IMG/VR virus record: IMGVR_UViG_2548876858_000010
Location: 1 to 8,233 of that record
Origin: a virus
Lineage: Duplodnaviria > Heunggongvirae > Uroviricota > Caudoviricetes
Length of the DNA: 8,233 nt
Reading direction: 5' to 3' (one strand)
This document shows positions 1,238 to 7,473 of this stretch, in pieces. Numbering within the stretch: the stretch's first letter is position 1; every line of letters begins with the position of its first letter. A program made the translations under genes and the position numbers. The notes under the pieces are model-generated. The model was not told the DNA's origin, searched no databases, and saw only the letters and a program-made list of their open reading frames with translations.

Positions 1238-1314
1238 TGGTGCGTTGTACTGGGTTCGAACCAGTGACCGATTGCTTAGAAGGCAATTGCTCTGTCCGGC
1301 TGAGCTAACAACGC
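1238..1314 (-). tRNA. argO: tRNA-Arg, anticodon TCT (77 nt)
   Basis: Manual cloverleaf: GCGTTGT/ACAACGC acceptor, GCTC/GAGC D-stem, anticodon loop CTTCTAA, ACTGG-TTCGAAC-CCAGT T-arm, 3' ACCA encoded. Symbol is by analogy with the Stx-phage ileZ-argN-argO triplet and is not verified. Confidence 0.85.
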
Positions 1315-1327
1315 AGAATACCGATAA

Positions 1328-1404
1328 TGGACCGCCATCGGAGACTCGAACCCCGCGAAACCAGCTTCGAAGGCTGGCGTTCTATCCCGATGAGCTAATG
1401 GCGG
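1328..1404 (-). tRNA. argN: tRNA-Arg, anticodon TCG (77 nt); one D-stem mismatch and discriminator U
   Basis: Manual cloverleaf: CCGCCAT/ATGGCGG acceptor, anticodon stem CCAGC/GCTGG with loop CTTCGAA, T-loop TTCGAGT, 3' TCCA. D-stem GCTC/GAAC has one mismatch. Symbol by analogy only. Confidence 0.75.
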
Positions 1405-1405
1405 T

Positions 1406-1481
1406 TGGTGGCCCTTGCTGGATTTGAACCAGCGACCTGGCGATTATGAGTCGCTCGCTCTCACCACTGAGCTAAAGGGCC
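1406..1481 (-). tRNA. ileZ: tRNA with CAT anticodon, ileX-like (probable lysidine tRNA-Ile2; elongator Met not excluded)
   Basis: GGCCCTT…AAGGGCC acceptor, anticodon loop CTCATAA, T-loop TTCAAAT, CCA encoded. Close to the E. coli ileX sequence from memory. Separated by 1 nt from the next tRNA. Confidence 0.85.
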
Positions 1482-4359: not shown

Positions 4360-5406
4360 TTACCCAAGCACGCCAGTTGCAAAGGCGTGATCAAGAAAAC
4401 GAAAAATTAAATCAACCTGAGAACCATGCTTTTCTTCGAACGCCAGAGGATCCGCATGAAGCTCGTTGTGATGCTCCCGACACAGCGGTAGCGTGAAAAT
4501 ATCGTGAGATTTTGTCCCCATTCCGCCCTGACCATGACCAATCAGGTGATGGGGATCGTCGGCTGGCTTACCACAACACGCACACGGCTGTGTCTTCACC
4601 CAGCGTGTGTATTTCTCGTTAACCCAGCGGCGACGTTTAGGTCGTTTCATGAAAGATTCCGGAGACTCAGGATCAACGGCAATGCTGACCACCGTCTCTT
4701 CCTGTGGCGGGTTTTGCTGGTGGGCGTGAGGCAGCGGCGCAAGATTTTTTGTGCGCTGCTTCAGTATGCTGGTGGCGGTCTGCTCTCCCGGTACGATGTC
4801 GCTTTCACGGTACATTGAGCGGATTTTTTCCGCACGCAACCCCAGCGAACGACGTAATACCGCTTCCGGTAGCGCGTCCGCCACCTGATTGCGGACCGCC
4901 CACCAGGATAATTCAGCCAGCGATAATTCCCGTTCCTGCGAGCCATTCATTGCATGGAGTATGACGTCAATCATCCATGCAGACAGGTTTTGGTGAGCAA
5001 GTTGCCCGAGTGATTCGGAGGTCTGGTCGCGCAGCTGGTTGTCGCAGTGCCAGCACAACACCATTGCGCCGGTACCATAACGGTGAATGACGGTTTCACT
5101 GTGGTGATAATCGCCGTGTGGCCACTGGCAGGATTTAACATGGCGCAGTAACCAGTCAGACAATGCGCCAGCGCCACCAGCAGCACGAATCACTCGTTCG
5201 TCGCTGAAAAATGGCAGTAATGATTTATCCTCCGCCAGCGGCTGGCGAACGGCAGGAACGACCCCGGACGACAGATTACGCATGCTTTTCGGTTCCGGCT
5301 CCACCAGTACCCGGGTATTGTGGAATACCGGCATGGATTCACAGCCCGGCTTAACGATCACCAGCCCGAGTTCCGGTACCAGAACAGGTCGAAGTAATAC
5401 CCGCAC
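4360..5406 (-). CDS. ydfU: DUF968/YdfU-like prophage protein with C-terminal HNH-like Cys/His motif (348 aa)
   Basis: Track ORF. GTG start at 5406 preceded by GGAGG-N4; alternative ATG at 5334. C-terminus CACCGKPADDPHHLIGHG…LCREHHNELH. Symbol by synteny with Qin (hokD-rem-ydfU-quuQ) and similar length, recalled not verified. Confidence 0.75.
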   Translation of the reverse strand: MRVLLRPVLVPELGLVIVKPGCESMPVFHNTRVLVEPEPKSMRNLSSGVVPAVRQPLAEDKSLLPFFSDERVIRAAGGAGALSDWLLRHVKSCQWPHGDYHHSETVIHRYGTGAMVLCWHCDNQLRDQTSESLGQLAHQNLSAWMIDVILHAMNGSQERELSLAELSWWAVRNQVADALPEAVLRRSLGLRAEKIRSMYRESDIVPGEQTATSILKQRTKNLAPLPHAHQQNPPQEETVVSIAVDPESPESFMKRPKRRRWVNEKYTRWVKTQPCACCGKPADDPHHLIGHGQGGMGTKSHDIFTLPLCREHHNELHADPLAFEEKHGSQVDLIFRFLDHAFATGVLG

Positions 5407-6122: not shown

Positions 6123-6150
6123 AATAAAAACAAAAACCCGCCGAAGCGGG
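6123..6150 (-). terminator. Rho-independent terminator of the hok transcript
   Basis: Minus strand CCCGC-UUCG-GCGGG followed by UUUUUGUUUUUAUUUU. Confidence 0.6.
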
Positions 6151-6220
6151 TTAAGTGCGGGTGCGTTGAGGATGCCTGACACATCAGAGGTGGCGAGGGA
6201 TTTCTCCCCCGCCTGGTCTC

Positions 6221-6376
6221 TTACTCCTCAGGTTCGTAAGCTGTGAAGACAGCGACCTCCGTCTGGCCGGTTCGGATTCGTACCTCGCAGAGGTCTTTCC
6301 TCGTTACCAGTGCCGTCACTATGACGGTTAAACAGATGACGATCAGGGCGATTAACATCGCCTTTTGCTGCTTCAT
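6221..6376 (-). CDS. hok: Hok-family type I toxin (51 aa)
   Basis: Manual translation MKQQKAMLIALIVICLTVIVTALVTRKDLCEVRIRTGQTEVAVFTAYEPEE, matching the HokD/RelF sequence as I recall it. Missing from the ORF track because it is under 60 aa. Confidence 0.92.
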   Translation of the reverse strand: MKQQKAMLIALIVICLTVIVTALVTRKDLCEVRIRTGQTEVAVFTAYEPEE

Positions 6377-6432
6377 AGCCTGCTTCTCCTTGACCTTTCG
6401 GTCCGTAAGAGGCTAATCTCTATGTGTCGCAT
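6373..6432 (-). CDS. mok: mok-like leader reading frame (19 codons) ending in TGA overlapping the hok ATG
   Basis: ATG at 6432 with GAGG 8 nt upstream; MRHIEISLLRTERSRRSRL. Start region aligns with the R1 mok start (cuAUG…GAUAGCCUCUUAC) from memory. Shorter than R1 mok. Confidence 0.45.
   Translation of the reverse strand: MRHIEISLLRTERSRRSRL
6390..6419 (+). promoter_or_regulatory. Sok promoter candidate (TTGACC-N18-TAATCT), antisense to the hok/mok translation-initiation region
   Basis: Hexamers read on the plus strand in the position equivalent to the R1 Sok promoter. Confidence 0.45.
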
Positions 6433-6495
6433 AGATATGGCCTCAGATTAATGTTAAGCGTCTTGCAGGACGCGTAATGTTAACTGGGGCTTTTC
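6426..6495 (+). ncRNA. sok: Sok-like antisense RNA (approximate extent; 3' end not resolved)
   Basis: Inferred from the promoter at 6390-6419 and complementarity to the hok mRNA leader. Contains hairpin GCGTC-ttgcag-GACGC; I could not identify a clean terminator. Confidence 0.35.
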
Positions 6496-6552
6496 TCTAT
6501 CTGCCTTTTGGTGTTCATGCCTGAGACAGATAGCCTCAAGCACCCGCAGTCA

Positions 6553-6579
6553 TTCTACTTAACTAAGATTTCCCCGCAA
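6553..6579 (-). promoter_or_regulatory. hok mRNA promoter candidate (TTGCGG-N16-TAGAAT), transcript start near 6546-6548
   Basis: Hexamers read directly. The predicted 5' end GCGGGUGCUUGAGG is complementary to a 3'-UTR element at 6157-6171. Confidence 0.45.
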
Positions 6580-6634
6580 ACCGTTTTTGTCCGGCACAGT
6601 AAATATCCAACTAAACCAATGGCGTTCGCTGTAT

Positions 6635-6814
6635 TTACCGCCAGTATTCAATGCACATGACCGCCATGAACACCCCTAAAAAAAGGGCATTTATATGTCC
6701 AAACATTAATATCAAAACATCAACTTTTTCCATATACCTTGCTGTGAAGATGATGGGCATACATGATGCGAACAACCAGAACGCAACAAACAAAAACTGC
6801 AATGCGTTTTTCAT
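6635..6814 (-). CDS. Small membrane protein (59 aa, two hydrophobic segments) in an AT-rich islet
   Basis: ATG at 6814 with AGGGGG 4 nt upstream; MKNALQFLFVAFWLFASCMPIIFTARYMEKVDVLILMFGHINALFLGVFMAVMCIEYWR. The track lists a GTG-extended 72-aa form (6635..6853). Confidence 0.45.
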   Translation of the reverse strand: MKNALQFLFVAFWLFASCMPIIFTARYMEKVDVLILMFGHINALFLGVFMAVMCIEYWR

Positions 6815-7296
6815 TATTCCCCCTACAATCAATGTGCAATAACATTTAAACACACCTCAATTTAGCCGGACATATAAATATCTAAACCAGAAAAAATCAC
6901 TTACATAGCGTTACAAACTCTTTAGTCTAAATATTCATCGTAAAACATTCCCCATACTTATCAGCCCGTTCTGCGCCAGGTAGCTCATTGCCTTATCTGG
7001 GAATCTGTAATCAGGTTTCCGGATGCTGGTGGATTTTCGCATTTTAGTTGTTCATAAAAGTGCACAGCTTTAACCAGTTCTTCTGATGTAACCGGGACTG
7101 GCGGGGCAGTGAATAAGGCCTGAATTTCATAGTTCGGCCTGTCGTTACAATCCTCTTTTTTCGGTACATATTTCCAGTCACCAGACCACTACTTCCCCTG
7201 AAAGTCCGTAACGCCTTTTTTTCACGTAGCGATATCGCCATGCCACTGTTTTTGCTTGCCCCGCCGTTTCATGCCCTTCCTGATAATTAACCTCGC

Positions 7297-7473
7297 TCAT
7301 TCATCGCCCCACTCATCACAATATGCTTCGACCGGAGTTTTTCCTGCTTCATAATCATCACGCCATGCTTCAGCATCAGCAGCACTGCCACCACGTAACT
7401 CTGCATAGTCCATTAACAGTTCATGCCATTCTTCAAAACCGACGTTGTATTTAGTTGAACCAAAATCAGCCAT
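7297..7473 (-). CDS. Small acidic protein (58 aa), W/Y/D/E-rich
   Basis: Manual translation MADFGSTKYNVGFEEWHELLMDYAELRGGSAADAEAWRDDYEAGKTPVEAYCDEWGDE. Its ATG overlaps the upstream 60-aa ORF by 8 nt (AATGGCTGA). Not in the ORF track. Confidence 0.45.
   Translation of the reverse strand: MADFGSTKYNVGFEEWHELLMDYAELRGGSAADAEAWRDDYEAGKTPVEAYCDEWGDE

Follow-up and report, generated by a model that had tools for sequence, protein, structure and literature searches.

The AT-rich islet found directly upstream of hok in the window (i.e. the whole 8233-nt stretch of DNA analysed here) is probably an ordinary, old part of the nin region in a set of lambdoid prophages from E. coli and Shigella. It encodes a 59-aa protein, predicted to form a hairpin in the inner membrane, and the imperfect repeat around it is coincidental. 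Judged by its sequence in two diverged lineages, the open reading frame (ORF) of the islet is a genuine protein-coding gene with a history of long-term purifying selection. The coding question is settled by this two-lineage comparison and not by dN/dS within either lineage. The product represents a new, unnamed two-lineage family of small prophage membrane proteins, albeit of a familiar type.

The window belongs to an E. coli lambdoid prophage, from which it covers part of the early-right (nin) region. All genes relevant to the analysis are located on the minus strand (Table 1). Besides the DUF968 gene, these include a rem-like ORF and hok, for which the hexamers TTGCGG and TAGAAT, read off the sequence, are the putative promoter elements. 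Farther upstream in the direction of transcription there is a pair of small acidic ORFs, of which one is assigned to DUF7167. The preliminary description had placed the islet between hok and the acidic ORFs. This holds on the hok side, but on the acidic side a pseudogene that had been missed intervenes. It derives from a 171-aa gene that is intact in many related prophages (e.g. L020 2365-2880), and PGAP calls it a pseudogene because ca. 150 bp have been lost from the copy in the window near 7015-7026. In other relatives, a difference of ca. 56 bp is observed at the same spot. The arrangement recurs in RefSeq records with an identical 701-bp stretch, which list hokD, an unannotated gap, a frameshifted pseudogene, and the acidic ORFs in succession. 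Downstream of the Q-like gene, a homologue of the STnc100 sRNA (Rfam RF02076, 117 bits) and three tRNA genes were identified at 284-464 and 1241-1481 (both on the minus strand), with a 352-aa ORF in the same area at 1522-2580.

Table 1. Features of the islet and its surroundings (window coordinates)
Feature	Position	Strand	Evidence or remark
DUF968 protein	4360-5406	-	window gene
hok toxin gene, 51 aa	6221-6376	-	Pfam HOK_GEF (PF01848), E = 1e-23; hokD in RefSeq
hok mRNA leader with sok/mok region, and hok promoter region	6374-6592	-	Rfam RF01794 at 6374-6545
Kept 3' flank of the 59-aa gene, holding the left repeat copy	6597-6634	-	resembles the second-lineage locus, z = 5.6
Imperfect direct repeat, left copy AAATATCCAACTAAACCA	6601-6618	+	chance match
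CDS of the 59-aa two-helix membrane protein, stop included	6635-6814	-	ORF list, sequence, homologue comparison, AlphaFold2 prediction
A7/T7 homopolymer inside the ORF, codons 44-46	6678-6684	.	frameshifted database variants break here
AT-rich leader/intergenic DNA, from stop of upstream gene to ATG	6815-6934	-	30.8% GC; resembles the second-lineage locus, z = 5.1
Shine-Dalgarno site GGGGG	6819-6823	-	4 nt ahead of the ATG
Imperfect direct repeat, right copy AAATATCTAAACCA	6876-6889	+	chance match; not conserved in the second lineage
Pseudogene, deletion derivative of the 171-aa gene (phrog_660-like)	6935-7300	-	PGAP 'frameshifted; internal stop'; PHROG remnants

The ORF begins with an ATG at 6814-6812 and terminates with a TAA at 6637-6635; its product reads MKNALQFLFVAFWLFASCMPIIFTARYMEKVDVLILMFGHINALFLGVFMAVMCIEYWR. 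A 59-aa membrane protein with two helices and a strong Shine-Dalgarno (SD) site had been proposed beforehand, and the ORF, the SD site, and the predicted helices were all confirmed once the coordinates had been corrected to 6814-6635 on the minus strand. In about half of 108 related copies the SD site reads GGAGG (6821 G/A = 55:53); written as a hexamer, it is GGGGGA or GGAGGA. AlphaFold2 predicts helices at residues 2-26 and 31-58 (pLDDT 82). The C-terminal tail has only four residues (EYWR), and the protein is strongly hydrophobic with a GRAVY of 1.19. Across seven aligned sequences the invariant positions are W13, S17-C18-x-P20-I21-I22, T24, and Y27 in helix 1, and L36, F38-G39, N42-A43-L44, F49, and I55-E56-x-W58-R59 in helix 2 and the tail. 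Helix 2 additionally features a series of small residues, G39-x3-A43-x3-G47, of which G47 is swapped in two rare variants of the second lineage; the adjacent V48 is likewise replaced in one or two. H40 is polymorphic to Y. The 55-aa database forms that end in ...FFRGVHGGHVH, frameshifted at the homopolymer run, could be due to real slippage or to homopolymer sequencing errors.

The second lineage came to light when 1.84 billion representative proteins were searched exhaustively with phmmer, yielding a further E. coli group (P0083/P0088) of exactly 59 aa and 44% identity over the full length. It resides in a decayed prophage remnant beside ttcA, where Rac attaches, with an integrase fragment on one side and sitD fragments next to uspF/ompN on the other. 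In CFT073/ST131-type strains the remnant is found at L209 7000-9300, where the sitD (ABC-3) fragments precede uspF. In strain L213, a sitABCD-like operon is found intact just upstream, together with a gene for tail-fibre assembly. At the nucleotide level, L209 7856-8217 matches window positions 6949-6597 in one block of 62% identity, which reaches from the final codons of the upstream gene across leader and ORF to the 3' flank, thereby passing through both repeat positions. Only 18 nt beyond this block, L209 8235-8324 is 74% identical to the 3' half of hok (6308-6215), and on the upstream side remnants of nin genes are arranged in the same order as in the window. As hok and the same gene end flank both diverged lineages, the order upstream gene – 59-aa gene – hok predates the lineage split. 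In the remnant the 59-aa gene is intact, whereas hok lacks its promoter and 5' part including the start.

Comparison of the two lineages provides the main evidence for a coding function. Nucleotide identity follows codon position, with values of 0.59, 0.71, and 0.49 for the first, second, and third position, respectively. Accordingly, pN (0.32) is well below pS (0.72), and with dN = 0.42 and a saturated dS of 2.5 the dN/dS ratio amounts to ca. 0.17. Start, stop, and the length of 180 nt are kept at 60% nucleotide identity, whereas the lengths of the flanks differ. Moreover, the ORF is the sole frame that is open in both lineages; it contains no stops in either, and each other frame has at least two stops in at least one of them.

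Regarding its working, the 59-aa gene shares its strand with the 171-aa gene (here the pseudogene) and hok/sok, between which it lies, and would be transcribed with the nin operon in lytic growth. A strict consensus scan of both strands over 6150-7350 returned neither a promoter nor a terminator. Read by eye, a weak extended -10 element for the 59-aa gene may be present (TG at 6852-6851, TTAAAT at 6849-6844), and could perhaps contribute to transcription; the TG-n-TTAAAT at 6852-6844 aligns with a TG-n-TTAACT in the second lineage. Translation would start from the strong SD site. Both ends of the protein are presumably cytoplasmic (N-in/C-in), as suggested by a basic N-terminus (MK / MRK) and by the acidic loop of the second lineage. 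Within the membrane, the protein may act by helix packing via the small-residue face of helix 2 (G39/A43/G47) together with N42 and the polymorphic H40.

Small membrane proteins with two helices and 57-83 aa are known from phages and prophages, among them the class II holin S21, the toxin GhoT, and exclusion proteins of the T4 Imm type. The 59-aa protein resembles these in size, in its two-helix hairpin, and in the probable location of both ends in the cytoplasm, but shows neither a sequence match nor a significant fold match to them. With class II holins it has the two transmembrane helices predicted by AlphaFold2 in common; unlike these, it carries no charged C-terminal tail and is encoded upstream of Q in the nin region, not next to the endolysin downstream of Q, and searches against Pfam and PHROGs gave no match to a holin family. 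Similarly, it can be compared to Hok/Gef proteins (PF01848) as a small hydrophobic inner-membrane prophage protein that adjoins hok in both lineages, but it has two predicted helices instead of one and no sequence relationship to Hok. A third point of reference are the morons of lambdoid phages, reportedly accessory genes inserted between conserved neighbours and defined from HK97/HK022 comparisons. The 59-aa gene is moron-like in that it is a small extra gene of deviant base composition (36% vs 49% GC), which is present in some but absent from other related nin regions and is not needed for the surrounding core phage functions. It differs from a moron by having no detectable promoter or terminator of its own and by its long co-evolution with the neighbouring genes, and the islet-less relative 689R5 differs by replacement with diverged flanks.

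Taking the islet as an old nin-region component, the likeliest single role of the protein is that of an accessory, 'moron-like' factor of the host membrane, which excludes other phages or modulates a membrane protein of host or phage. This assignment is tentative, falling somewhat short of an even chance, and homology lends it no support. A toxic peptide or an exclusion factor, as suggested in the preliminary description, is likewise a guess, with no hits to toxin or defence families. If membrane function is indeed altered, be it by phage exclusion, toxicity, or modulation of Hok, the gene would provide pathogenic E. coli with a widespread trait carried by prophages.

The alternative that survives best, though still improbable, is a membrane-damaging toxin: a second killer beside hok, either holin-like or of the type I toxin-antitoxin (TA) kind, which would be held in check by antisense RNA or by folding of its mRNA. 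With 59 aa, pronounced hydrophobicity, and two predicted helices the protein would fit a type I toxin, it adjoins hok in two lineages, and the small-residue zipper of helix 2 is accompanied by polar residues. In addition, a perfect 12-nt inverted repeat would allow the leader (6868-6879) to pair with codons 39-42 (6689-6700), and the 351-nt minus-strand RNA folds somewhat better than its shuffles (z = -2.4). Still, the pairing does not hold as a hok-like fold-back element, as the 12-nt inverted repeat is absent from the second lineage. Neither a mok-like leader ORF nor a sok-like RNA nor fold-back elements were detected for the 59-aa gene, Rfam at a permissive threshold returned nothing inside the islet, and the opposite strand shows no promoter- or terminator-like site; an antisense partner, if there is one, would be an undescribed RNA. 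Pfam, NCBIfam, and PADLOC do not contain a matching toxin family. The tail of four residues and the position outside the lysis cassette are unlike those of holins. The second lineage is intact in a dead remnant where hok has been truncated, which is unexpected for an unguarded toxin. For this reason a non-lethal role is favoured, and our guess is that a stand-alone lethal toxin is less likely than a non-lethal accessory function at the membrane.

Two further observations concern the RNA. Within the inverted repeat, the 6871A variant occurs only together with 6697T, a compatible double change that probably reflects one event. In the minimum free energy fold, the ca. 65 nt past the upstream stop (6874-6938, minus strand) fold into a long, AU-rich hairpin, within which the right repeat copy lies; this is not a canonical terminator.

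According to another reading, the ORF is spurious and the islet is AT-rich spacer DNA that codes for no protein, such as a regulatory region or a stretch bound by H-NS ahead of the hok promoter. Several observations are compatible with this. PGAP leaves the ORF uncalled, hydrophobic frames arise by chance in T-rich DNA, and frameshifted or truncated variants are common in the databases. Between the lineages, the non-coding flanks are conserved to roughly the same degree as the ORF itself, each being significantly similar in its own right (z = 5.1 and 5.6), so that part of the similarity of the ORF is due to shared ancestry of the whole block. Moreover, all ten substitutions among the 108 copies of this lineage are nonsynonymous, where ca. 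20-32% of the possible changes would be synonymous (nominal P = 0.03). The same is true for both substitutions among ten copies of the second lineage (L209 8001-8180), giving a pooled count of 12 nonsynonymous to 0 synonymous changes with a nominal P of ca. 0.02-0.03. Within the lineages, dN/dS thus gives no sign of present-day purifying selection in these 108 + 10 copies. The excess, as opposed to the ratio of 0.17 between lineages, may stem from relaxed selection in decaying prophages or from assembly errors (T>G singletons). The ORF of the second lineage has 2 polymorphic sites in 180 compared to 30 in 1020 for its surroundings, which is lower but not significantly so. In IMG/VR, 112 of 114 loci have an intact ORF, and as these loci were picked by a pattern in the flanking DNA there was no selection for ORF integrity; intactness within a lineage nevertheless says little because the copies are too alike. 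Conversely, a spurious ORF is difficult to reconcile with conservation that tracks codon position (second > first > third), with identical start, stop, and 59-codon length in the only shared open frame, with motifs that are kept in both helices, and with a strong SD at the right distance that is retained or even improved (GGAGG) across copies. On balance, we consider the non-coding reading unlikely.

The constant proximity to hok allows for a third alternative, namely that the 59-aa hairpin is a functional partner of hok/sok. It may tune or gate killing by Hok, or its transcript may read into hok and couple it to the early operon. Such a partnership would explain why two lineages with 62% nucleotide identity both keep the gene directly upstream of hok, and read-through is conceivable because no terminator is detectable before the hok promoter. 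An upstream membrane ORF goes unmentioned in a recent survey of hok loci. We regard the partnership as unlikely, slightly more so than the non-coding reading; if true, a TA system so far described as hok, mok, and sok alone would gain a protein component.

The islet attracted attention by its base composition and a bracketing repeat. A sliding GC check bears out the first of these claims: positions 6593-6934 have a GC content of 36.3% compared to 49.2% for the window, a value this low is reached by only 0.6% of all 342-nt windows, the lowest of which begins at 6596, making the islet essentially the lowest-GC stretch of the window. This low value mainly reflects that a very hydrophobic protein is encoded by T-rich codons and that its leader is AT-rich. 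The repeat, with the motif core TAAATATC..TAAACCA, is present as claimed on the plus strand, but its significance is not upheld. It is the top gapped direct self-match in 6500-7000 with a score of 24. Of 300 dinucleotide-preserving shuffles, 20.7% score at least as high, and the match is therefore no more than expected by chance. For an ungapped repeat finder, it reduces to 11 nt at 91%. Furthermore, the two positions are dissimilar to each other in the homologous locus of the second lineage, and the homology block 6949-6597 runs through both of them.

The junctions of the islet were traced in related phages. On the left side, the islet has its mosaic boundary at ca. 6588-6592, just upstream of the hok promoter, where homology with the hok modules of 933W, further Stx phages, and 689R5 ends. 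On the right side, 689R5-type phages become homologous again only from 7026 onwards, and 6918-7019 resembles the C-terminal end of the 'ACLAME 31' gene family. In 689R5, which has no islet, merely ca. 85 nt separate the stop of the homologous gene from the -35 element of hok. The preliminary description had suggested that insertion junctions be defined from homologous prophages that lack the segment. The 689R5 type does lack it, but its intervening DNA is unrelated and its flanks are diverged alleles, indicating mosaic replacement rather than clean excision. No empty-site junction, defined as right flank, 0-30 nt, and left flank with one repeat copy, was found in IMG/VR and the JGI metagenomes; IMG/VR also gave no match in which the end of the upstream gene closely adjoins the hok promoter, and the sampled E. 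coli matches contained no empty-site allele. Across ca. 190 IMG/VR copies, the islet has hok on its left and the 3' end of the upstream gene on its right, the only exceptions being IS insertions. None of these copies places the islet in an unrelated genomic context, and the second lineage conforms to the same order. With chance-level repeats, constant neighbours, an order older than the split of two lineages, and no empty site, a separately acquired mini-cassette between the upstream gene and hok, whose repeat would mark the junctions as target duplication or recombination sites, is highly improbable in spite of the low GC content, the top-scoring self-match around the ORF, and the short spacing in 689R5. 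Thus, the repeat-bounded cassette that made the islet look unusual is not real, and no unusual mechanism has been demonstrated.

Individual copies vary in other respects. Deletions within the upstream gene differ among the ca. 190 IMG/VR copies, and L039 contains an IS insertion of ca. 1.26 kb at the equivalent of 6622-6625, just past the stop of the ORF. L152 diverges at 6883 and was considered as an alternative junction by the right repeat; this proved to be an IS1-like end.

The islet is widespread in E. coli. Of 5426 complete E. coli genomes, 1569 carry this lineage, always with at least 95% identity and with no RefSeq feature beneath, and 1045 carry the second lineage, which is unannotated too. 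CFT073, EC958, NU14, and ATCC 11775 are among the carriers of the second lineage, while ST131, CFT073, and ATCC 25922 are found among the carriers of the ORF when both lineages are taken together. Word-indexed protein searches returned only Escherichia/Shigella sequences of at least 88% identity, along with many truncated or frameshifted forms; tblastn against GenBank phages gave only three near-identical copies, and the GTDB representative genomes yielded two Shigella copies and one spurious match. A profile built on both lineages retrieved no further relatives, so that the family appears confined to Escherichia/Shigella.

Family searches with both lineages (Pfam, PHROGs, NCBIfam, PADLOC) gave no match, which includes zero hits to PADLOC defence families for either lineage. 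DUF4212 was recorded at E = 0.07 with 13.9 bits against a cut-off of 30; this sub-threshold hit is regarded as compositional. A Foldseek comparison with BFVD produced only generic hairpins and nothing at E < 1, the best match (E = 1.1) being an unnamed 'putative membrane protein'. The peptide string of the 59-aa protein is absent from the literature searched.

The significance of the gene lies in its wide annotation gap, with ca. 1500 plus ca. 1000 carriers among the 5426 complete E. coli genomes, and in its suggestive linkage to hok. It illustrates how small-protein genes with clear evolutionary support slip past annotation. Where GenBank submissions name the product at all, it is a 'hypothetical protein' or 'membrane protein'. 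In two phage records (ON470612.1 and ON470619.1), an antisense ORF at 6651-6842 on the plus strand is labelled 'hornerin' instead; this frame contains two stops in the second lineage, and the label is almost certainly a mis-annotation.
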